This document shows, in pieces, positions 16,069 through 27,036 of a stretch of DNA of 64,000 bases (position 1 is the first letter of the stretch; the number at the start of each line of letters is the position of its first letter). Position numbers and translations under genes: made by a program. Where the stretch lies: NCBI GenBank assembly GCA_963708025.1, contig CAVPSB010000014.1, positions 288,001 through 352,000 on the forward strand, given 5' to 3'. The stretch comes from an uncultured Candidatus Rokubacteria bacterium (GTDB lineage Bacteria > Methylomirabilota > Methylomirabilia > Rokubacteriales > DASRDR01). The notes below the pieces were generated by a model. It was not told the DNA's origin. It did not search any database and worked only from the letters and a program-made list of their open reading frames with translations.

Positions 16069-16716
16069 GTGTCGCCTCCGCCGATCGGTACCTCGAGGGT
16101 GGAGGGCATCGTGAGGGGGATCGAGCGCCGGATCGTCGTGCGGGGGCTGATGCTGCTCGCGGGCGGGTGGGTCTACGGGGTCGTCGGTCGCGAGTCGGCG
16201 GCACAGCAGCTGCCGCGGGGGGTGCCGCCGCCGGCGCCCGGGAGCGGCACCGGCCCGGCCGGGCTCACCTGGACCGCGCCGAAGGGCTGGGTCGCCGAGC
16301 CGCCGACCTCGTCGATGCGCCGCGCCCAGTACCGGATCCCGGGGCCGGCCGGCGCCGGCGAGTGCGTCGTCTTCTACTTCGGCGCCGGCCAGGGTGGCGA
16401 CGCCGAGACGAACGCCGCCCGCTGGGCCGAGCAGTTCGAGCAGCCCGACGGCTCGCCCTCGCGCAAGGCGCTCAAGATGAAGTCGCTCGACGTCAACGGG
16501 GTCCGGGTGACGCTCGCGGAGATCACGGGCATCTACCGCGGCGGGATGCCCGGGGGCCCGGCGGCGCCGACGCGCCCCGACTACATGCTCCTCGGCGCGA
16601 TCGCGCGGGGTCCCGACGCCAACTGGTTCTTCAAGGCCACCGGCCCCCGCCAGACGATGGAAGCCAATCGGGCGGCATTCGACGCCATGGTCCGCTCGCT
16701 CAAGCCAGGCTCGTAG
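16069..16716 (+). CDS. conserved exported hypothetical protein (start uncertain)
   Basis: hydrophobic N-region; WTAPKGW, SSMRRAQY, GQGGDAETNAARW, WFFKATGP; coding-like codon pattern. Confidence 0.7.
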   Translation: MSPPPIGTSRVEGIVRGIERRIVVRGLMLLAGGWVYGVVGRESAAQQLPRGVPPPAPGSGTGPAGLTWTAPKGWVAEPPTSSMRRAQYRIPGPAGAGECVVFYFGAGQGGDAETNAARWAEQFEQPDGSPSRKALKMKSLDVNGVRVTLAEITGIYRGGMPGGPAAPTRPDYMLLGAIARGPDANWFFKATGPRQTMEANRAAFDAMVRSLKPGS

Positions 16717-16957
16717 AAAACCGCTCCCGCAAATCCTCGTCCTCGGCGCGGGGTCTCTGGCCGGTGTTGGGCTGCTGGGTGTCAAGCGTTGTGCAACATT
16801 CAACGACTCGCGCGCAATGGGCGTGGCGGCTGCCAGGAAGGAATCCAGGCGCCTCTCATGGCCGGCGATCGGCGGGGCTCCGTCGAGCGTGGCGCGCGGG
16901 TCGGATGGAATGGATGCCGCATTCCCCGCCGGCGCAGGGCGGGAGGCGGGCGCGCGC

Positions 16958-17251
16958 CTAGTTCAGCGTGACCACGTGGGGGCGGCCCATCTCCTCGATG
17001 AGCGCGACGAGGAGGAGGCGCACCAGCACGGTGGTGGCCGGGCTCGGCGGGCGGGCGTCCGACATCGCGAGGGAGCGGACGATCCGGGTCACGGCCTGGC
17101 GGACCGCCAGCTCGACGGGCGCGGACTCCGCGGTGCCGAACCAGTGGGCCAGGGCCTCGCGGCAGCTCCTGACGCCGTCCTTGACGGCCGCGTTCAGCAC
17201 CGCCACGTCGCCTTCCTGCAGTCCCCTGAGCGCCTCGTCGTCCGGGATCAC
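16958..17251 (-). CDS. small hypothetical protein
   Basis: GAGGAGGG RBS before GTG; helical 97-aa product. Confidence 0.5.
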   Translation of the reverse strand: MIPDDEALRGLQEGDVAVLNAAVKDGVRSCREALAHWFGTAESAPVELAVRQAVTRIVRSLAMSDARPPSPATTVLVRLLLVALIEEMGRPHVVTLN

Positions 17252-17447
17252 GTCATTTCCCTCCTCTGTGCTTCGAACCCGCCGTACGCCGACCCAGACG
17301 AGCAAGGGGTGTGCCACGGCGACCACCCGGGCTCTAACTTCACGTCACGACGACGCGATCCGGCCGTCCACCCGCCGGTGAACGGTGAGGCCGGCCCACG
17401 GCCGTCCAGAGTCTGACCAGTCGCCTGGACCGTCTTTGCACAGGTCC

Positions 17448-17843
17448 TCAGCGTCCGGCGCTGGAGCCGGCACGATAGGCCCGCCAGCCGCCGTGGGCGG
17501 AGATGTCCCGGTGGAGGCCCTCGGCCAGCTCGCGCGGGTAGAGGATGCCCGGGACCTCCCGGCCGTCGGCGAGGCGGATCGGCCCCCGATACAGCCCGGG
17601 CGGCTCGCCGGCCTCGACGCGCCGCCACACCTCGTCGGGCACCCGGTAGAGCTCGCCGGCCACCGACACGCCGCCCGAGGCCACCTCGAACATGCCGGGG
17701 TGGCGGTCGTCGATGGAGTAGAGGCGGTAGACCGGCGCCGTCCACGCCTCGCCCAGGAACTCGGCCCCCTCGAGGTTGGCGTGGAGCGCGAGCCCGCGCA
17801 TGAGGGTGCCGTTGACGAAGAGCTCGGACGCCCCGCCGGTCAG
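17448..17843 (-). CDS. gamma-glutamylcyclotransferase-fold protein (allophanate hydrolase C-domain-like); start uncertain
   Basis: LFVNGTLMRGLALHANL, TAPVYRLY, VAGELYRV, EPPGL, DISAHGGWRAY. Confidence 0.8.
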   Translation of the reverse strand: MTGGASELFVNGTLMRGLALHANLEGAEFLGEAWTAPVYRLYSIDDRHPGMFEVASGGVSVAGELYRVPDEVWRRVEAGEPPGLYRGPIRLADGREVPGILYPRELAEGLHRDISAHGGWRAYRAGSSAGR

Positions 17844-19417
17844 CGGCGGCCCAGCGGCGGCGCGGCCGCCGGAACCGGTTTCCCGGCCGGCTCCAGCCGG
17901 GCGAAGCCCCAGCAGATGGCCGCCAGCAGCAGGTAGCCGAGGGCGACCCCCGCCGACTCTCCGATCCCCAGCTTGGCGCCGTGGATGAAGCCGAAGTAAG
18001 ACAGCACGGCGCCAGCCAGCCCGTAGATGGCGGCGCGATTGAAGTCCCGGTCGATGATGAAGGCGGCCACCGCGCCCAGGATCATGCCGGCCAGGATCGC
18101 CCCGCCGCCGAGGAGCTCCATGCCGTGGTAGACGACCCCGGCTCCGCCGAGGGCGGCCAGGCCCACCTTGGCGGCCGAGGTGCCGGCGGCGTTCAGCGCG
18201 CCGTCCACCTGGGTCTGGGCCCAGGACGCGAGGTTGGGGATCAGGGCCAGGATGACCGCCGGCGCGTGCTCGCGCGGCGTGGCCTGGAAGGCCTGGGCGC
18301 CGATCACCACGCCGATGTAGAGGAGGATGGGCAGGATCGCCACCAGGGGGATCACGGCCAGGAGCAGGGCGACCAGGCCCAGGAAGCACACCAGCCCGAC
18401 GCAGACCCCGGTCGCCAGCGAGTAGCCGATCCGCCCGCCGACCGACTTCCAGCCGGGGTGGCCGATGTAGACGGCGGGCGGGAAGGGGCTGCCGAGGAGG
18501 GAGCCGACCACCGCGCCGATGCCGTCGGCGAGGAGGATCTTCCGCAGGCTGTAGCTGTCCCCGGCCGCCTCCGCGCTCTCGACGTTGTTCATGCCCTCGG
18601 TGAAGTTGTAGATGCCGAGCGGGATCGCGGTGACCAGGAGGGGGCCGATGTCGGCAAGCCCCGCGAAGACGTCGGCGGACGGGTAGGGCAGCCGCAGGCC
18701 GGCCTGGGCGATGGCCTTGCCGACCGCGGTCGCCTGCATGACGCCGCTCCAGCCGAGCAGCGTGGTGATCCAACCGACGGCGGTGCCGATGATGACCGCG
18801 GCGAGGCCGCCGGGCACGTTGCCGGGGAGCCGCACGCCGGCCATCCAGCTCACCATGATGATGGCGAGCGAGATGAAGGCGATCCACGGCACCTCCCAGC
18901 TCTGGAAGGCCGGCCGCATCGAGATGAAGGTGATCGAGATGCCGGCCAGCGTCCCCAGCATGGCCGCCCGCGGGGTGTGCTTGCGGATGGCCGGCCCCAC
19001 GAAGGCGCCGAGGAGGATGATGACGCCGATCACGAAGCACCAGGCGAGCCCGGCCTGCCAGGCGGCCACGGGGTTGCCGGTCCTGATGACGATGGGCAGC
19101 ATGATGAGGAACACCACGATGAACATGTGGGGCACGCTCGGCCCGTACGGCATCGCGGTGACGGTGTCGCGACGCTCGCGCTTGGCGAGCTGCCAGGCCA
19201 GGTACGCGTAGTAGAGGTTGCCGAGCGGCAGCGCGATGCCCAGCGCCGGGATGATGCGGCCGAACACGATGTTGTCGGGCAGCTTGACGACCCCGAGCAC
19301 GAGCCCCGTGAGCACGATGACGTTGAGGACGACGTTGGTGAAGAGCCCGAAGAAGGCGTTCCAGTCGCCGGGCACCCACCACCGGACCGGATACTCCGAG
19401 TCAGTCGCGCGCCCCAT
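17840..19417 (-). CDS. NCS2/AzgA-like permease of the type found beside biuret/triuret hydrolases
   Basis: WWVPGDWNAFFG, TAMPYGPSVP, PRAAMLGTLAG, NNVESA, YIGHPGWK; many TM segments. Confidence 0.85.
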   Translation of the reverse strand: MGRATDSEYPVRWWVPGDWNAFFGLFTNVVLNVIVLTGLVLGVVKLPDNIVFGRIIPALGIALPLGNLYYAYLAWQLAKRERRDTVTAMPYGPSVPHMFIVVFLIMLPIVIRTGNPVAAWQAGLAWCFVIGVIILLGAFVGPAIRKHTPRAAMLGTLAGISITFISMRPAFQSWEVPWIAFISLAIIMVSWMAGVRLPGNVPGGLAAVIIGTAVGWITTLLGWSGVMQATAVGKAIAQAGLRLPYPSADVFAGLADIGPLLVTAIPLGIYNFTEGMNNVESAEAAGDSYSLRKILLADGIGAVVGSLLGSPFPPAVYIGHPGWKSVGGRIGYSLATGVCVGLVCFLGLVALLLAVIPLVAILPILLYIGVVIGAQAFQATPREHAPAVILALIPNLASWAQTQVDGALNAAGTSAAKVGLAALGGAGVVYHGMELLGGGAILAGMILGAVAAFIIDRDFNRAAIYGLAGAVLSYFGFIHGAKLGIGESAGVALGYLLLAAICWGFARLEPAGKPVPAAAPPLGRR

Positions 19418-19443
19418 GGTCTCCTCCCGTGTTGAGGCTCCGG

Positions 19444-20142
19444 TCACCGCTTGGCTGCCTTCTTCTTCTTCTCTTTCGCTCCGCCCAGCGCCTCGAGGAA
19501 CCGCCGGGAGTCCGAGACCCAGCCGAAGATGCCGCCCTGGGCCTTGATCATCTCGAGGGCGGCCTCCTGGAACTTCGGGAAGTAGGACCCGACGCAGTCC
19601 GAGAGCACCAGACAGTCGTAGCCGCGGTCGTTGGCCTCCCGGACGGTCGTCTGGACGCAGACCTCGGTCGTCACGCCGCACACGACGAGCTGGCGGACGC
19701 CGCGATTCTTCAAGATGGCGTCGAGGTCGGTGGCGTAGAAGGCGCCCTTCCCCGGCTTGTCCACCACGGGCTCCCCGGGGATCGGGGCCAGCTCCTTGAC
19801 GATGTCGTGTCCGTACTCGCCGCGCACCAGGATGCGGCCCATCGGCCCCTTGTCGCCGATGCCGGTTTTGAGTCGGCCGCGCGCCTTCTTGGCCGGCGGG
19901 CAGTCGGCCAGGTCCGGCCGGTGGCCCTCGCGGGTGTGGAGGACGAGGAGCCCGGCCTGCCGCGCCGCCTCGAGCACACGCCGGGCCGGGGGCACCGCCT
20001 TGCGAAGGAGCGACACGTCGTTGCCCAGCGCTTCGCCGAACCCGCCGGGGTCCACGAAGTCGCGCTGGAAGTCGATCATGACCAGCGCGGCCGTCTTCGG
20101 CGTGAACTCGAACTCGTAGGGCTCCGCCTCGACCGTTGCCAT
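19444..20142 (-). CDS. trtA: cysteine hydrolase, triuret hydrolase (TrtA)-type
   Basis: D-K-C triad (IDFQRDF, DKPGK, TTEVC); [16 protein letters not shown] and QGGIFGW fit TrtA rather than BiuH (GGYV..MGYD, TTD, AT, QGGVFG), from recalled sequences. Confidence 0.8.
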
Positions 20143-20154
20143 GCGACCCTCCCG

Positions 20155-21090
20155 TCAGGGCACGACGTGCGTGCCGGTCTTGCCCGCCACGGCGGCTTCC
20201 AGGTGCTCGGGCGAGCTGATGACGACTTCGCGGCCGCCGCGCTCGAGGAAGTCGATCGCGGCCTGCATCTTGGGACCCATGCTCCCCGGCGGGAACTCGC
20301 CCGCCTCCAGGTAGCGCCGCGCCTCGGCGGCGGTCAGCCGGTCGAGGAAGGTCTGGCCTGGCTGGCGGAAGCGGATCGCGACCTTCTCGACCCCGGTCGC
20401 CAGGACCAGCACCGGCACGCCGAGCTGGGCGGCCAGGAGCGCGGAGGCGTGGTCCTTGTCCACCACGGCCTCGACCCCCCGGTAGACGCCCGGCTCGTCC
20501 TCGACCACCGGGATGCCGCCGCCCCCGCACGCGATCACGACGAAGCCGGCGTCCAGGAGCGTCCGGATGGCGTCGGCCTCGACGATGCGGAGGGGCCGCG
20601 GGGACGGAACGACGCGGCGGTAGCCCCGGCCGGCGTCCTCGACCATGACCCAGCCGTCGCGCGCCTGGTGGCTCCGCGCCTCCTCCCCGGTGAAGAACGG
20701 GCCGATCGGCTTCCGCGGGCTCGCGAACGCGGGATCGTCCCGGTCGACGACGGTCTGGGTCAGGAGGCAGCTCACGCGGTTGGCGTGGCCCCGACGTCCG
20801 AGCTCGGCGAGGAGGGAGTTCCCGATGATGTAGCCGAGCCCGCCCTGGGAGTCGGCCACGCACATGTCGAGGGACAGCCGCGGCGCGTGCCGGTCGTCCG
20901 AGGCCAGCTCGGAGCGGAGGAGGATGAAGCCGACCTGGGGGCCGTTCCCGTGGGTGACGACGACCCGCCAGCCGGCCTCGACCAGCCCGCCGATCCGCCG
21001 GGCGGTCCCCCGCGCGTTCTCGAACTGCTCGGCGATCGTCCCCCGCTGGCCGTCCTGGATCAGGGCGTTGCCGCCGATCGCGATCATCAC
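20155..21090 (-). CDS. arcC: carbamate kinase
   Basis: AIGGNAL, THGNGPQVG, KPIGPF, RRVVPSP, GGGGIPV, VVDKD, GSMGPK. Confidence 0.95.
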   Translation of the reverse strand: MMIAIGGNALIQDGQRGTIAEQFENARGTARRIGGLVEAGWRVVVTHGNGPQVGFILLRSELASDDRHAPRLSLDMCVADSQGGLGYIIGNSLLAELGRRGHANRVSCLLTQTVVDRDDPAFASPRKPIGPFFTGEEARSHQARDGWVMVEDAGRGYRRVVPSPRPLRIVEADAIRTLLDAGFVVIACGGGGIPVVEDEPGVYRGVEAVVDKDHASALLAAQLGVPVLVLATGVEKVAIRFRQPGQTFLDRLTAAEARRYLEAGEFPPGSMGPKMQAAIDFLERGGREVVISSPEHLEAAVAGKTGTHVVP

Positions 21091-21099
21091 CGCGCGGGA

Positions 21100-22540
21100 T
21101 CATCGGCCGTGGATCGCCACCCGACGCCGAGCCGCCGCCCGAGGTCGCGGAGCGCCGCCGTCGAAACAGGGGAGGGGCGCCCGCGCGATGCCGGCGCCGA
21201 CCTGGCCGATGCCGGGCTCGCGGTGGGCGATGCCCGTGTTGATCACCGGGGCCACCCCGCTCTCGACGACCCGGCGGACGTCGATGCCGGTCGGCGACCC
21301 GGCGAAGCCGAGGGTCGGGATCCCGTACTCCGCGTTCCGCCCGAGCGTGATCCCGTACATCGCCCGGGTATAGGCGAGGGCGTCGGCCGGCGTGCCGCCG
21401 ACGAAGTGGACGATCGCCGGCGCTCCCGCCATCGCGAAGCCGCCGATCCCCGCCGTCTCGGTGATGGCGCTGTCGCCGAGGTCGGGGTTGGCGTCGGCCG
21501 GACCGTAGCCCGGGAAGTAGAGGCCATCGATGACCGGCGCCGGCGCGGTGAACCAGGCGTCCCCGGCGCCGGACACGCGGATCCCGAAGTCGACGCCGTT
21601 CCGGGCCATCGCGGTCACCAGCGGTCGAGCCCGCGACCCCGTGGGCGGCGTCGAGCGACGCCTTGCAGGCGGCCATCGAGAGGTTGAGGAAGAAGTGGTT
21701 GTTGCCGAGGATGAAGTCGAAGACCGCGGCCGCCGTGGGGCCGTCCACCGCGCGGGCGAGCGCCGGCGCGAGGGTCCGGGCGAAGAGGGAGGTGGCCGCG
21801 ACGTTCCGGTTGTGGCACTCGTCGCCCATCTGCAGGGCCTGGGCCACGTGGAGCTTCAGGTCGATCGGCCCCGTGCGGAGGGCGTCCCGGAGCGCGGGGC
21901 CGAGAGTGCCGGCGATCCACCGCAGGCGCTCGAGCACCTCGGCGTCGTAGGCGCCGAAGCGGAGGGCGCGGCCGAGCCCCTCGTTCAGGGTCGCGAAGGC
22001 GCGGTTCCCGTGGCTCGCGTTCTCGACGACGACGACGGGCATCGACGGCGACAGGATGCCGGCCATCGGGCCCACCGCGCCGTGGTGGTGGCAGGGCGCG
22101 AAGCGGATCCGGCCGGAGGCCACCAGCGCGGTGGCGGCCTCGGGGTCGGGAGCCCAGCCCTCGTAGAGGATCGCGCCGATGATGGCGCCGCGCACGGGGC
22201 CGCACATGCGGGCCCACTCGATGGGCGGGCCGGCGTGGAGGATCATGCGGTCCTCGAGGCCGGGGACGACCTCGGCGGCGGGGCGGACGTCGAGCAGTAT
22301 CGGGCGGGCCCCGAGGAGCCGGGCCATCGCGGTCCGGTTGGCCTCGGCCACCCGGGCGCCCACGGAATCGTCGGGATCGTCCTCGAGGCGCGCCAGGAGC
22401 AGCCCGAGGTCCCGGTCGCCACCGGCAGGCGGCCGCCAGTCGAGCTGGACGACGGTGGCGCCGTGGGCGCGGGGCGGCTCGGCGAACTGGGCGAGCCCGA
22501 CGTTCAGCGCGTGGACGCCGTCGGGGAAGACGTCAGCCAC
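21100..22540 (-). CDS. DUF1116 protein (YahG/YlbE/AllG-like), frameshift near 21620
   Basis: LHAGPP, PCHHHGAVGPMAG, LNEGLG, MGDECHNRN in one frame; TAMARNG, DLGDSAITET, INTGIAH, GQVGAG in the next. Confidence 0.9.
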
Positions 22541-24041
22541 GGCGGGCGCCGGCCTCGCGGGCGACGAGCGCGGCCAGGCGCGCGGCCTCGGCGTTCGACG
22601 GCAGGAGGACGACGCCGGCGGCGGCGAGCCTCGTCTCCTGACGCGCCAGGCCCTGGGGATCGCCCGCCGCCCCGCAGACGGAGCCGATCAGCACGGCGCG
22701 CCCCTCCACCCGCTCGAGGGCCGGGGCGAGGGCGCCGGCCGGGTCCGGGTGGCTGCCGTAGCCGAGGACGACGTCGAGCAGGATGACCGCGGTGGCGGGA
22801 TCCTCGGCGGCGGCCGCGATGTGCTCGTTGCGGAGTCGGAAGTCGATCATCGGGTGCGGCCGGCCGACGGTGAACTCGTCGTCCCCCAGGTCGAGGAGCG
22901 TGTGGCCGGCGCCGTGACCGGGGAGCAGGTCGCCGACGATCAGCGCGGCCTCCTTGGCGAGCGTGCCGCCGCTGTAGAGTCCGCGGATCGCCCAGCGGCC
23001 GGGAGCGAGCCGGCTCACCAGGTCGCGCGCCCGGGCGGCGAGCGCGGCCGCGTCGTCGCTCCCGGCGGCGCCGGCCGGCCGGCCGCCGGCCAGGCCGACG
23101 GCGAAGTCGGCGGCCTCAGCGAGCGTCGCCGCCGGAGTGGCGCCGCGCCGCCGGATCGCCGCCGGGTCACCGCCGAGGAAGCAGACAACCGTCGGCTTGC
23201 CCCCCGCCACCGCGCGGTCGAGGACCTCCGCCGCCACGTCGGGAGCCGGCGGCTTGGAGACGAGCGCCAGGACGAGCGTGTCCGGGTCCGCGATCAGCCA
23301 CTCGATGCCGGCCAGCATCATGAGACCGCCGACCCGCTCGTCCAGGTCGCGGCCGCCGACGCCGATCACCTGGGAGACGCCCTCGCCCCAGCGGTCGATC
23401 AGACAGCTGACCTGCTGGAGGCCGGTGCCCGAGGCGCCGACGAGGCCGATGCGTCCCCGCCGCACGGCGTTCGCGAAGCCGAGCGGCACGCCGTCCAGGA
23501 TCGCGGTGCCGCAGTCGGGGCCCATCACGAGCCGGCGCTTCCGCACCGCCAGCCGCTTCAGCTCGATCTCGTCCTCGACGGGGACGTTGTCGCTGAAGAG
23601 GAAGACGTGGAGGCCGCGCTTGAGGGCCTTGAGCGCCTCGGCGGTGGCGTAGGCTCCCGGGGTGGAGACGATCGCCAGGTTGGCGCCGGGCGCCTCGGCC
23701 AGCGCCGCGGCGATCGTGGCGGGCGGCGTCCGCTCGGCGGCGACGCCCGCGCTCGGGGCGGCCGCGGTCAGCCGAGCGGCGGCGTCGGCCAGGGCCGCCT
23801 CCGCCGCCTCGGCGCTCGCGGCGGCGACCGCGATGACGAGGTCGGCCGGGCCCGCCGCGGCCGCCTCGTCGGCGAGGAGCCCGGCCTTGGCCAGGAGGTC
23901 GCGGTTGGCCGGGGTCGCCATGAGCAGCGCTGCCCGCCGCACGTCCGGGCGCTGCTCCACCTCGGCCGCGACGCGCATGAGGTCGACCGAGTCGCGGTAG
24001 GTGTCCCGGAGCACGTGGGCGCGCAGGACCTCGTCCGCCAT
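22533..24041 (-). CDS. fdrA: FdrA/YahF (AllF-like) acyl-CoA synthetase-fold protein
   Basis: YRDSVDLM, MATPAN, FLFSDNV, MGPDCGT, GASGTG, GLYSGGTL, DLGDDEFTVGRPHPMID. Confidence 0.92.
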   Translation of the reverse strand: MADEVLRAHVLRDTYRDSVDLMRVAAEVEQRPDVRRAALLMATPANRDLLAKAGLLADEAAAAGPADLVIAVAAASAEAAEAALADAAARLTAAAPSAGVAAERTPPATIAAALAEAPGANLAIVSTPGAYATAEALKALKRGLHVFLFSDNVPVEDEIELKRLAVRKRRLVMGPDCGTAILDGVPLGFANAVRRGRIGLVGASGTGLQQVSCLIDRWGEGVSQVIGVGGRDLDERVGGLMMLAGIEWLIADPDTLVLALVSKPPAPDVAAEVLDRAVAGGKPTVVCFLGGDPAAIRRRGATPAATLAEAADFAVGLAGGRPAGAAGSDDAAALAARARDLVSRLAPGRWAIRGLYSGGTLAKEAALIVGDLLPGHGAGHTLLDLGDDEFTVGRPHPMIDFRLRNEHIAAAAEDPATAVILLDVVLGYGSHPDPAGALAPALERVEGRAVLIGSVCGAAGDPQGLARQETRLAAAGVVLLPSNAEAARLAALVAREAGARRG

Positions 24042-24106
24042 CGCACCTCCCCGGGAGAGACGACCCGACCACCGGCGGGCATGGCCACAGCCGTCGAACC
24101 GGCCCG

Positions 24107-24191
24107 ACTCTACGCCCGCCCATCCGGGACCGTCAAGCCACTCCTCGGACAGCTGGCATTCCTTGACCGGGCTGGCTTCGCGCGATAGCCT
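24107..24191. promoter_or_regulatory. candidate back-to-back sigma70 promoters
   Basis: minus strand TTGACG-N18-TAGAGT (24136-24107) toward fdrA; plus strand TTGACC-N17-TAGCCT (24163-24191) just before ATG 24200. Confidence 0.4.
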
Positions 24192-24199
24192 CGGCCGGG

Positions 24200-25150
24200 A
24201 TGGCACGCCTGGCGCTGCCCGAGGTGGACCGGGTCGAGATCCTCACCCTGCTCGACCTCTCGCTGGATCTTCTCATGGCCGGGAGCGAGACGGTGCGGCG
24301 GGTGGTGGTGGAGGGGACGCTGGGGGAGGGCCGCTCGGTGCTCCGCGCGGAGCACGGCTTCTCGAGCCTGGTGACCGTGGTGGCCGGAGAGCGGAAGGCG
24401 TCCTTCCTCTTCGACGCGGGCCTGACACGGGACAGCCTGCTGCACAACATGGACGTCCTGGAGGTGCGGCCGAACGAGCTCCAGGCGATCGTGCTGAGCC
24501 ACGGGCACGCCGACCACGTGGCCGGGCTCATGGGGCTGCTCTCCCGGACCGGACGCCGCCGGCTCCCGCTGGTGCTGCATCCCGACGCGTTCCTCCGCCG
24601 GAAGATCGCGCTGCCCGACGGCCGCGAGGTCCTCCTGCCGCCGCCGGATCGCCGCGGCATCGAGCAGGAAGGCGTCGAGATCCTAGAGGAGCGGGCCGCC
24701 TCGCTCCTGCTCGGCGGCCTCGCGCTGGTCACGGGCGAGGTCGCCCGGACGACCGCGTTCGAGACCGGCTTCCCGGCGCACTACGCGGAGGTGGAGGGCG
24801 CCTGGCGGCCCGACCCGCTGATCCACGACGATCAGGCCGTGGTGCTGAACGTCCGCGGCAAGGGCCTGGTGGTGCTCTCCGGCTGCGGTCATGCCGGGAT
24901 CGTCAACGTCGTCCACCACGCGATGGCCGTGACGGGGGTCGAGCGGGTCCACGGGGTCCTGGGCGGCTTCCACCTGACCGGCCGGCTCTTCGAGCCGCGG
25001 ATCGCGGCGACGGTCGAGGCGTTGCAGGCGCTCGCGCCGAAGCTGATCGTCCCGTCGCACTGCACGGGCTGGAAGGCCACCCACGAGATCGCCCGCGCCC
25101 TCCCCGACGCCTTCGTCCCCAACAGCGTCGGCACCACCTTCCTGATCTGA
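24200..25150 (+). CDS. MBL-fold metallo-hydrolase
   Basis: AEHGFS, LSHGHADH, SGCGHAG, GGFHL, SHCTG. Confidence 0.9.
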   Translation: MARLALPEVDRVEILTLLDLSLDLLMAGSETVRRVVVEGTLGEGRSVLRAEHGFSSLVTVVAGERKASFLFDAGLTRDSLLHNMDVLEVRPNELQAIVLSHGHADHVAGLMGLLSRTGRRRLPLVLHPDAFLRRKIALPDGREVLLPPPDRRGIEQEGVEILEERAASLLLGGLALVTGEVARTTAFETGFPAHYAEVEGAWRPDPLIHDDQAVVLNVRGKGLVVLSGCGHAGIVNVVHHAMAVTGVERVHGVLGGFHLTGRLFEPRIAATVEALQALAPKLIVPSHCTGWKATHEIARALPDAFVPNSVGTTFLI

Positions 25151-25164
25151 TCCCACACTCCGCT

Positions 25165-25199
25165 CCCTCTCCCTTCCAGGGAGAGGGTCGGGGTGAGGG
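25165..25199. repeat. REP-like palindrome, family B
   Basis: CCCTCTCCC-TTCCA-GGGAGAGGG followed by TCGGGGTGAGGG, between convergent genes. Confidence 0.7.
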
Positions 25200-25202
25200 C
25201 CC

Positions 25203-27036
25203 CTATCGCCGCTTCGCCAGGATCTGGATCTCCAGCGGCGCCAGCGAGACCCGCACCGAGCGCGGGTCGCCGCGCGACGACGCGGTGCCGGGCGCGGTCG
25301 GCCCCGGCCGGTTGGCGTACAGCACCTCGAAGGCGGCGCCAGCGGGGGTGAGATCGCGATCGACGACGACGTGGAGCGCCCGCTCCTCCGTGGTGTGCGT
25401 GTTGGCCGCGACGAGCAGCTCGCGGTCGTGGAGGATCCGCGAGAAGGCGAGGACCCCGCCGGGCGTCGCCGAGATGCCGAAGTCGGCGCCGTTCCCGGAG
25501 ACGGGGCGGAAGTACTGCCGCCCGTAGCGCAGGGCGGGCTCGGCCTGCCGGAGCCGTACGAGCGTCTGGACCGCCTGGTAGAAGGGGTGCGCCGGGTCGA
25601 AGGCCCCCGGCTTGCCCCACAGCGCCTCCCGCGCCGCCTCGCGACGGTTCCCCGCACCGTGGAGACCCTGCTCGGTGCCGTAGTAGAGGCAGGGGATTCC
25701 CTGCAGCGCGAAGAGGCAGCCCGAGCGCCAGCGTGAGCTGGTCGTCCCAGCGGTGCGGGTCGCCGGGCGGGCTCCAGTAGAAGCGGTTGTCGAGGTCGTG
25801 GTTGTCGAGGAAGGTGACGAAGTACCGGCCGGCCTCGCCGTGGGAGGCGAGCAGGTGCCGCGCTGCGCCGCCCGGCGGGCGGCGAACATCGCGTCGAGGG
25901 CGGCTGGGCGCGCCGCTCCCCTTGATCACCTCGGTGAGGCGGGTGAACAGCGGAAAGTCCAGCGCGGCGTCGATCCCGATCAGGCTCGCTCGTCCTTCTC
26001 GGTGTTGCGGCCGATGAACCGCGCGATCTTCGCCTCGTCGTCGACTCCAGACCTCGCCGAAGGTGAAGAAGTTGGTCTTGCCGAGGCTCAGGGCGAACTC
26101 CCGGATGGCGTCGCCGAACGTGCGGGCGAAGTCCTGCTCCACGTACTTCAGCGTATCGATGCGGAAGCCGTCCACGTCGAACTTCGCGATCAGGTACTGG
26201 TGGGCGCGGATCAAGAGCTCGCGCACCGGGAACCGGCCGTCCGCCCGGTACTCGGTGACGATCTCCTTGAGCGACCCGAAGTCGCCGCACGGTCTCCGGC
26301 GCGCCCTTCCCCTCGCGCCCGCGCCGGCGCCAGTAGTCGTTGCGCTGGAGCTCCTCCGGCCACACGACGCCTTCGGGTGGACGGGGCGCCGGGATCGTCG
26401 CGGCCTCCGGCCACGCCGGCACGCCTCTGGCCGGTCGCGTCCCGCCAGCGCACGTCATACTCCCGGCCGCCGCCCTTCCAGGGGGCCTCGGCCCCGTGGC
26501 TCACGTAGTCGAAGACGTCACCGGCGTGGTTGATCACGACGTCGAGGATCACGTGGAGGCCGTGGGCGTGGGCGGCGTCCACCAGCCGGCGCAGCTCGTC
26601 GTCGCCGATCCGCGGGTCGATCCGGGCGGCAGCCGGGTCGGAGGTGAAGCGGGGCTCGACCCGGAGGAAGTCCTGGATCCCGTAGCCGTGATAGCTGTCG
26701 GCCTTCCACTGGCAGTTCTTCAGGACCGGCGACAGCCAGAGCGCGCCGACGCCGAGGTCCGCCAGGTACGGCAGGCGCCGGCGCACGCCGTTCGAGTGTG
26801 CCGCCCTGGAAGACCCGTGATCGCCCGTCCCACGGCGCGAAGCGGGGCGCCGCCGCCGGGTTGTCGAAGCGGTCCACCAGCACGAAGTAGATCCAGCGGT
26901 CGCGCCAGTCGCCGGGCGAGGGGAACGGGGTGGCGATGCGCACGCCCGTCCCGCCGATGGGCACCAGACGCTCGCGGGGGATGGCGGCCTCGCGCAGGAC
27001 CGCGTTGACATCCGGGCCAAAGACGGCGTTCGGCAT
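25203..27036 (-). CDS. GH13 alpha-amylase family protein, multiple frameshifts
   Basis: WRDRWIYFVLVDRFDN, LWLSPV, YHGYG, LDVVINH, DGFRIDT, FLDNHD, GIPCLYYGTEQ spread over several frames. Confidence 0.88.

Follow-up and report, generated by a model that had tools for sequence, protein, structure and literature searches.

Between positions 17448 and 24041 of the 64-kb stretch of DNA considered here (the window, G000:C14:288001-352000, from an assembly of 8.17 Mb in 49 contigs with 71-73% G+C) lie six genes on the minus strand, which encode in turn FdrA (AllF), an AllG or DUF1116 protein, a carbamate kinase, a cysteine hydrolase, a permease and the C-terminal domain of allophanate hydrolase (AH_C) as a stand-alone protein. 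An earlier note, made from the sequence alone, had described six coupled minus-strand genes, and all are present with the limits then proposed. What the note observed is confirmed in part and its interpretation supported in part: its predictions that lend themselves to computation were all borne out, and the phosphorolysis of biuret or carboxybiuret stays a proposal. On sequence grounds we judge it an even call that the operon is catabolic for a linear polyureide, most likely triuret, with a paralogous AllFG(H) releasing carbamoyl phosphate from carboxybiuret, biuret or allophanate. The hydrolase is of the TrtA (triuret hydrolase) type, both by its residues and by its place in a tree; the module recurs across phyla; it excludes BiuH, the biuret hydrolase, locally and genome-wide; and the AllG linked to TrtA forms an orthologue group separate from YlbE of Escherichia coli.

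In the scheme that we favour, the permease would import triuret and the hydrolase, as its ~66% similarity and fully kept specificity residues suggest, would remove one terminal amide to give NH3 and carboxybiuret. The AllF/AllG carbamoyltransferase, probably with an AllH encoded on another contig (C26), would then replace the hydrolytic BiuH/AtzF route: carboxybiuret, which like oxalurate is an anionic acyl-urea, would pass its terminal carbamoyl group to phosphate, with carbamoyl phosphate and allophanate as the products. Biuret (yielding urea) or allophanate (yielding carbamate) might also be taken. Carbamate kinase, the chemistry of which is established for the family, would convert carbamoyl phosphate to ATP and carbamate; the stand-alone AH_C may decarboxylate an N-carboxy intermediate, be it allophanate, carboxybiuret or N-carboxycarbamate; and urease, for which the genome has two alpha genes, could break down whatever urea arises.

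The isochorismatase-like cysteine hydrolase (232 aa; 19444-20142, minus strand) scores 286 bits with the TrtA of Herbaspirillum (6XIX), 262 bits with the generalist BiuH of Rhodococcus and 240 bits with the BiuH of Rhizobium. TrtA has a catalytic triad of D24, K129 and C162, the ligands F29, E72, K132 and Q202, and a consensus distinct from that of BiuH at F35, N41, A134, E160, Y187 and I205 (PMC7948467). Residue numbering in the window hydrolase coincides with that of TrtA, and the two are identical at 13 of 13 positions (24, 29, 35, 41, 72, 129, 132, 134, 160, 162, 187, 202 and 205; signature DFFNEKKAECYQI), with the triad and all four ligands kept. At positions 35, 41, 134, 160, 187 and 205 the window hydrolase has F, N, A, E, Y and I, as against Y, Y, S, D, T and V in the crystallised Rhizobium BiuH. 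The motifs singled out earlier, F/N, the E of TTEVC, the Y of SYF and the I of GGIFG, are indeed in the translation and fall at TrtA positions 35/41, 160, 187 and 205. The same signature is found in 76 of 98 aligned hydrolases from related loci, in which second hydrolase copies read DFYYEKKSDCTQV (13 copies) or its A134 variant DFYYEKKADCTQV (two more).

The phylogeny against TrtA and BiuH that the earlier note had proposed gives the same answer, the window hydrolase lying inside a TrtA-type clade of 81 rows with a Shimodaira-Hasegawa-like approximate likelihood ratio test (SH-aLRT) support of 100, and the crystallised BiuH in a BiuH-type clade (95-96). The tree was drawn from other rows than Herbaspirillum TrtA, which was compared through the PDB scores. 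Both hydrolases of plasmid pRL10 of Rhizobium leguminosarum 3841 agree with this arrangement: its BiuH matches 6AZO over the full length with 543.6 bits, being the protein that was crystallised, and is placed in the BiuH-type clade, and the second pRL10 hydrolase, the TrtA orthologue of PMC7948467, scores 282 bits to 6XIX, essentially equal to the window hydrolase. On the BiuH equivalog model NF050097 the latter reaches 290.5 bits, under the cut-off of 370. It is a probable triuret hydrolase, expected from its sequence to convert triuret to carboxybiuret.

A scan of one genome per species yielded 580 confirmed relatives of the hydrolase, of which the best 80 (67-85% identity, 8 phyla) were taken with up to 10 kb of flanking DNA, and their neighbours were counted by tblastn with verified seeds. 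Among these best 80, at least two of FdrA, AllG and carbamate kinase lie within 9.5 kb of trtA in 22 loci, and all three in 20; the 22 module loci come from Chloroflexota, Alpha- and Betaproteobacteria, Methylomirabilota, Acidimicrobiia and Verrucomicrobiota. In 15 of the 80 loci a second hydrolase, of BiuH type, stands near trtA, and its distribution is exclusive of the module (0/22 module loci versus 15/58 others; Fisher p=0.008, the relatives not being independent), so that the neighbourhood survey proposed in the earlier note finds trtA with at least two of the fdrA, DUF1116 and carbamate kinase genes, and no local BiuH, in 22 of 22 module loci. If the count is restricted to the 50 loci that have 6 kb or more on either side, 17 have the module, 12 have BiuH and none has both. 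A third type of neighbourhood, with an amidase and an AtzH-like gene, is seen in nine loci, AtzH-like genes being found in 0 of the 22 module loci. The nearest cluster homologue of the window is in a Methylomirabilia metagenome-assembled genome (MAG). Six loci (L041, L042, L045, L052, L057 and L060) have the gene order of the window; in these AllH is directly upstream of fdrA, and in five of the six there is a PucR-type regulator.

The exclusion of BiuH extends beyond the neighbourhood of trtA. A genome-wide search covered the 22 module genomes and the genomes of 50 of the 58 other TrtA loci (one control genome, G070, is unpublished); BiuH over cut-off was found in 0/22 of the former and 32/50 of the latter (p=7e-8, again with relatives that are not independent). 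The 32 are made up of all 15 genomes in which a BiuH is local (the positive controls) and 17 of the remaining 35 (second p=5e-5). One module genome, G060, has a truncated BiuH candidate of 305 bits. For the window genome the earlier note had called for a genome-wide search for biuH, atzF and DUF2877. The first two were not found: the profile search of the genome gives no BiuH-type enzyme over cut-off, no AtzF (the best amidase scores 239.7 against a cut-off of 511, and is without AH_C) and no AtzH-like protein, and carboxybiuret and biuret therefore have no known route in this genome. DUF2877 did turn up, as a single AllH gene at C26:45159-45461. An isochorismatase paralogue on contig C12 (G000:C12:319089-319733; L016:10090-10752) was considered as a BiuH and rejected: although it reaches 262 bits on the BiuH model, Y stands at position 132 and A at 202, and it forms a long separate branch. 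Its neighbours are an arginase-family gene, ABC transporter genes and a short-chain dehydrogenase, and it may act on another ureido or guanidino compound.

These absences bear on the interpretation that has been published for similar gene clusters. Comammox MAGs have trtA, biuH and atzF beside allFGHK, and archaeal ammonia oxidisers have biuH beside allFGHK; PMC12625717 (mSystems 2025) reads allFGHK in these organisms as a means of oxalurate degradation, i.e. as one of two separate pathways. Applied to the window, TrtA would deaminate triuret, AllFG(H)K would turn oxalurate into oxamate and carbamoyl phosphate, and the two independent pathways would merely be co-located for purine-oxidation salvage. 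Existing AllFGH biochemistry, which concerns only oxalurate and oxamate (PMC11326118), is in keeping with this, as is the fact that urate oxidation yields both triuret and oxalurate (PMC7948467). We nevertheless regard it as unlikely. It leaves carboxybiuret or biuret without a known enzyme in the window genome and in 21-22 of the 22 module genomes, and no oxamate-handling gene is present in the operon.

Further evidence on this point comes from AllG. In a tree of 43 AllG sequences, in which the window is represented by the N-terminal piece of its protein, 24 of 27 TrtA-linked AllGs, together with that of G039 (from a cluster fdrA-allG-carbamate kinase-AH_C), form one clade with an SH-aLRT of 99; it contains the window AllG and a copy from an E. 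coli plasmid. A neighbouring grouping (SH-aLRT 93) holds E. coli YlbE, a second AllG of the window genome encoded on contig C26, and seven order-level relatives, six of which were not seen with trtA; YlbE, the C26 AllG and five of the relatives make up an inner clade (97). Three divergent DUF1116 genes beside trtA, from Actinomycetota and Chloroflexia, fall outside the TrtA-linked clade, and the AllGs of four further relatives, one of them (rel_L023) from the unpublished genome G038, branch outside both clades. Co-location of two independent pathways would not explain why the TrtA-linked AllGs stand apart from YlbE.

The C26 copy belongs to a cluster on the plus strand at G000:C26:42900-54300 (L018:4956-16331), made up of a gamma-glutamyltranspeptidase-family gene, AllH, FdrA, AllG and carbamate kinase, with an ABC substrate-binding protein and a class-V aminotransferase (between FdrA and AllG), an Asp/Glu racemase and an M42 peptidase after the carbamate kinase, and an NtrY-like kinase and a sigma-54 activator upstream. 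The oxamate amidohydrolase HpxW belongs to the gamma-glutamyltranspeptidase family, which would make C26 a canonical oxalurate set. The sigma-54 activator, for its part, makes unlikely the actinobacterial origin that a G+C of 73% had at first suggested. Neither this cluster nor the chromosomal allFGHK cluster of E. coli contains AH_C. The presence of a second allFGHK of canonical type, both in the window genome and in E. coli that carry the plasmid-borne module, is again left unexplained if the operon is itself for oxalurate. Two more DUF1116/AllG paralogues are encoded in the window genome, at G000:C12:347595-348836 (L017:9595-10836) and G000:C6:3758-4945 (L019). They form a deep clade of their own, and neither has FdrA, AllH or carbamate kinase in its neighbourhood; one is found among ABC-transporter genes and the other by glutamine-synthetase-like, peptidase C26 and PNPOx-like genes.

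The last gene of the operon (17448-17843, minus strand) had been described as encoding a GGCT-fold protein. This assignment has to be replaced, as the protein is an AH_C (PF21986, 113.8 bits against a cut-off of 27, E 6.6e-33; GGACT, E 2.9e-13) and the only one in the genome. It matches the allophanate hydrolase model TIGR02713 (AtzF/AH) at positions 440-562 only, the amidase-signature N domain not being matched. The earlier note was right that the operon has no biuH, no AtzF amidase domain, no allantoin genes and no DUF2877, but had overlooked that half of AtzF is there. The best relatives of solved structure are the 137-aa stand-alone protein 5C5Z (88 bits) and, next, the allophanate hydrolase of Granulibacter in its C domain (4GYR, 33 bits). 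We know of no function that has been assigned to stand-alone AH_C proteins; the C domain of allophanate hydrolase reportedly acts on N-carboxycarbamate (Fan et al. in 2013). In allophanate hydrolase the N and C domains catalyse sequential reactions (PMC5770610). A full-text literature search for TrtB or a carboxybiuret decarboxylase found the protein family of TrtB not stated; AH_C and the AtzH-like protein are both candidates for it. Close to where the AH_C domain begins, ATG, GTG and TTG are all absent, the only candidate being a CTG at 17843; the AH_C proteins of relatives start 2-5 residues ahead of the motif LFVNGTLMRGL.

AH_C is a regular companion of the module. A stand-alone form (at least 40% identity) occurs in 12 of the 22 module loci, and a full allophanate hydrolase over cut-off in seven of the 22 module genomes, with a split one in an eighth; in seven of these eight it adjoins trtA. 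The two sets do not overlap, so that AH_C accompanies 20 of the 22 modules either alone or within AtzF. So constant a partner suggests that N-carboxy intermediates such as allophanate are involved, which do not arise in oxalurate chemistry, and this partner too goes unexplained if two pathways are only co-located.

It bears equally on a different possibility, namely that there is a single pathway but not one for triuret: the sub-clade of hydrolases to which the window enzyme belongs might deamidate another acyl-urea amide (e.g. an oxalyl-ureide amide) to oxalurate or a close analogue, which AllFG(H) would then phosphorolyse. The specificity of TrtA has been measured for the Herbaspirillum enzyme alone, with a small panel of substrates (PMC7948467), and AllFGK-linked and BiuH-linked TrtAs do form separate clusters inside the TrtA clade (6 label changes versus 20.9 expected), a BiuH-linked clade of 39 rows having zero AllFGK-linked members. 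Against this, all 13 catalytic and specificity positions are identical in the AllFGK-linked and BiuH-linked enzymes, the same permease family follows trtA in both contexts (it adjoins trtA in 63 of the 80 loci), and N-carboxy intermediates would be foreign to such a pathway. Such a pathway from another amide to oxalurate or its analogue seems to us distinctly unlikely.

As assembled, the allG gene (21100-22540, minus strand; Pfam AllG) is not intact. The DUF1116 gene reported earlier does encode an AllG domain; that it is frame-broken had escaped notice. Pfam AllG positions 1-164 are found in 21619-22540 and positions 166-215 in the next frame, in 21100-21618. The phase of G+C at third codon positions (GC3) switches at 21623, with a GC3 of 0.87-0.99 on either side. 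Removal of the extra base at ~21623 gives the reading GSTLVTAMARNG, and relatives hold both parts in one frame. A second extra base at ~21160 garbles the final ~20 residues: past it the window frame reads ...CFDGGAPRPRAAARRR, the shifted frame, ...AALRDLGRRLG, matches ...CFAAALRAVAAELG of relatives, and relatives read ...CF.AAL... uninterrupted at this end of the protein. Both extra bases, that at 21623 and that at 21160, are missing from Logan contigs (~97% identical) of three metagenome studies; the depth without the base at 21623 is 15.4/28.6 in X1, 11.5/11.5 in X5 and 6.51/6.51 in X9.

Similar breaks occur elsewhere in the assembly, and those in allG are for this reason treated as probable consensus errors. 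In the window, an enoyl-CoA hydratase gene (minus strand) is split at ~35331 (ECH_1 positions 5-81 and 86-250) and a solute-binding protein gene (minus strand) at ~39547 (SBP_bac_1 positions 8-79 and 109-290); the C26 fdrA (L018:7564-9115) is also in two frames, with a Pfam match (Ligase_CoA) for its C-terminal piece only. Rather than inactivation, the pair of breaks in allG most likely reflects assembly errors (consensus indels). A Viterbi scan of GC3 phase over the 64-kb window gives 12 same-strand frame switches, and an alpha-amylase gene is fragmented at 25200-27020 (minus strand).

Were the allG frameshifts real, the operon might be decaying in this strain, having lost AllH and a PucR-type regulator from its 5' end and the start codon of AH_C. 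Besides the two breaks and the non-canonical AH_C start, it can be said for this idea that AllH and PucR flank syntenic clusters of other phyla and do not flank that of the window, and that in run X20, with pieces ~99% identical, the deletion at 21623 is found in 0/6.58 depth. We think decay improbable all the same. Pfam-continuous breaks in unrelated genes of the window, with that in the C26 fdrA, are typical of consensus indel errors; GC3 is high before and after the break; the gene is uninterrupted in contigs of three other studies; and a promoter-like site is found directly upstream of fdrA. Nor is AllH always local. It is a usual member of the module, upstream of fdrA in the majority of related clusters, and is detected by tblastn in 16 of the 22 module loci, and by Pfam as exactly one gene in each of the 22 genomes, sometimes on another contig; the AllH-less clusters L033 and L037 have it elsewhere in their genomes.

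Several observations weigh against the operon being a working phosphorolytic triuret pathway. The result from X20 is one, in view of which a real and recent frameshift of allG in this lineage keeps a small probability; as assembled, allG is frame-broken and AllH is missing at the locus. The sole AllFGH to have been characterised was assayed with oxamate and carbamoyl phosphate, and all three subunits were required (PMC11326118). AllFGHK is not always a replacement for BiuH, since the comammox MAGs of PMC12625717 hold both together. In G033 (L024), the AllG next to trtA belongs to the other clade. Where the Granulibacter C domain has the His of its GAH motif, the window AH_C and 5C5Z both have Leu, and two Chloroflexota loci (L093 and L098) have neither AH_C nor AtzF. 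Finally, the best 80 of the 580 relatives are biased towards the sub-clade of the window, are phylogenetically non-independent, and come mostly from MAGs of unknown completeness.

The remaining genes and signals of the operon may be described more briefly. FdrA (502 aa; 22533-24041, minus strand; Pfam CoA_binding and Ligase_CoA) is the succinyl-CoA-synthetase-alpha-like subunit of an AllFGH-type carbamoyltransferase; it scores 459 bits on NF004760 (cut-off 433) and is 41-69% identical to FdrA genes that adjoin TrtA elsewhere. Its boundary with AllG is shifted relative to E. coli, FdrA having 502 rather than 555 aa and AllG ~480 rather than 419 aa; residues 9-52 of the window AllG (22400-22540) match positions 511-554 of the FdrA model NF004760, and TrtA-linked AllGs have a median length of 475 aa. 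Carbamate kinase (allK/arcC-type, 311 aa; 20155-21090, minus strand; Pfam AA_kinase) scores 383.9 bits on NF009007 (cut-off 266) and 345.5 on the arcC equivalog TIGR00746, just below 358.25.

The permease (525 aa; 17840-19417, minus strand), a candidate triuret importer, starts with an ATG at 19417 that is preceded by GGGAGGAG. It had been called NCS2-like, which holds for the fold and not for any Pfam match: searches of Pfam and NCBIfam, including Xan_ur_permease (PF00860), gave none, and a protein atlas gave PF00860 as a sub-threshold lead (0.89). An AlphaFold2 model with a predicted local distance difference test (pLDDT) score of 85.5 has the 7+7 inverted-repeat fold of NCS2 and SLC26 transporters, and its top Foldseek matches are SVCT1, UraA, AZG1 and SLC26Dg (probability 1.00, E ~1e-7 to 1e-6, template-modelling score ~0.5-0.6). 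The fold is common to SLC26 and SLC4, and NCS2 membership is therefore not proven. In the sister loci L093 and L098 two tandem copies of the permease follow trtA and precede fdrA-allG-carbamate kinase. In two Burkholderiales MAGs (L035 and L032, TrtA 80% identical) trtA is preceded only by an amidase and a weak match to AH_C (35% in L032) and followed by the permease, with no FdrA, AllG or carbamate kinase within 10 kb; G078, the genome of L035, has no BiuH over cut-off.

From fdrA through allG, carbamate kinase and hydrolase to the permease, the successive intergenic distances are -8, ~9, 12 and 26 nt. A sigma-70-like promoter candidate (TTGACG-18-TAGAGT; 24107-24136, minus strand), which is a consensus match only, lies ~65 nt upstream of the fdrA ATG and is the sole promoter-like site in 16800-24400 (one found versus 0.1 expected from shuffles). 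No RNA family was found in an Rfam search of 16500-25500 (E up to 0.1), and a terminator scan gave a single weak plus-strand site, not above chance. Flanking open reading frames, scanned over ~8-29 kb of the window, include no allantoin, biuret or urea gene; they encode dihydrodipicolinate-synthase-like, aldo-keto reductase, amidohydrolase_2, metallo-beta-lactamase-fold and HpcH aldolase proteins and the fragmented alpha-amylase.

The same module is carried by E. coli itself. A TrtA-type hydrolase 69% identical to that of the window is found on 78 Escherichia plasmid records; the gene content was taken from one of them, pCh101, a conjugative IncK2/Z plasmid of poultry E. coli. Here (L113, NZ_CP127318.1:36796-44974) the genes encode the cysteine hydrolase, DUF2877, FdrA, DUF1116, ArcC, an AH_C-like protein, a cytosine permease and a LysR protein. 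The AH_C-like protein, a 'hypothetical' protein of 129 aa, is 48% identical to the window AH_C. The chromosomal allantoin cluster of E. coli K-12 reads fdrA-ylbE-ylbF-ybcF.

In a full-text literature search, only PMC12625717 joins both gene sets (its supplemental text on allFGHK lay outside the search). The co-location of trtA and allFGHK is already known, having been reported there. As far as the literature searched reaches, what is new is the BiuH-less, AH_C-bearing module, the separate AllG clade, the spread of the module, including to an E. coli plasmid, and the proposal of a phosphorolytic branch. To our knowledge, the known triuret and biuret routes are purely hydrolytic. With somewhat less than even confidence, and from comparative genomics, we propose that the module represents a third, phosphorolytic branch of polyureide catabolism beside the BiuH/AtzF and AtzE/AtzH routes, which would yield up to two ATP per triuret, use AH_C as an N-carboxy decarboxylase and the permease family as triuret importer, and have reached at least five phyla as well as E. 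coli plasmids by horizontal transfer. If true, this would be the first energy-conserving route for linear polyureides and would provide a second substrate family for the newly defined AllFGH enzyme class; it would assign roles to the stand-alone AH_C proteins and to the permease, both of them unannotated families, and change how allFGHK next to trtA or biuH is read in nitrifier and soil MAGs. Because the module sits on plasmids of culturable E. coli, the idea of phosphorolysis is directly testable. As impurities of urea fertiliser, triuret and biuret are spread on fields in large quantities; urate oxidation is a further source of triuret (PMC7948467).

It is useful, finally, to set the operon beside the systems to which its parts are related. 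The triuret pathway of Herbaspirillum sp. BH-1 and R. leguminosarum 3841 consists of TrtA, TrtB, BiuH and AtzF (PMC7948467). The window hydrolase has the same residues as this TrtA, but downstream of it in the pathway the window has AllF, AllG, carbamate kinase and the stand-alone AH_C, with no BiuH, AtzF amidase or AtzH-like protein; a single NCS2-fold permease stands in place of the BMP-type ABC system of Rhizobium pRL10. With the C domain of AtzF/AH and with 5C5Z the last protein shares Pfam AH_C; it differs from AtzF/AH in having no amidase N domain, and from the Granulibacter C domain in the Leu that replaces the His of the GAH motif. The clusters described in PMC12625717 show the same linkage of triuret or biuret hydrolases with allFGHK, likewise in uncultured organisms of soil or sediment; they carry biuH, and those of comammox also atzF, whereas the window genome is without BiuH and the AtzF amidase and has the stand-alone AH_C. 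With AllFGH and AllK of E. coli (PMC11326118) the operon shares the FdrA, DUF1116 and carbamate kinase families and their order, and by analogy the chemistry would be expected to be alike, phosphorolysis of an N-carbamoyl group followed by the formation of ATP. It differs in that its AllG belongs to another clade, AllH is not in the operon and there are no allantoin genes nearby; in the window the set is linked instead to trtA, the permease and AH_C.

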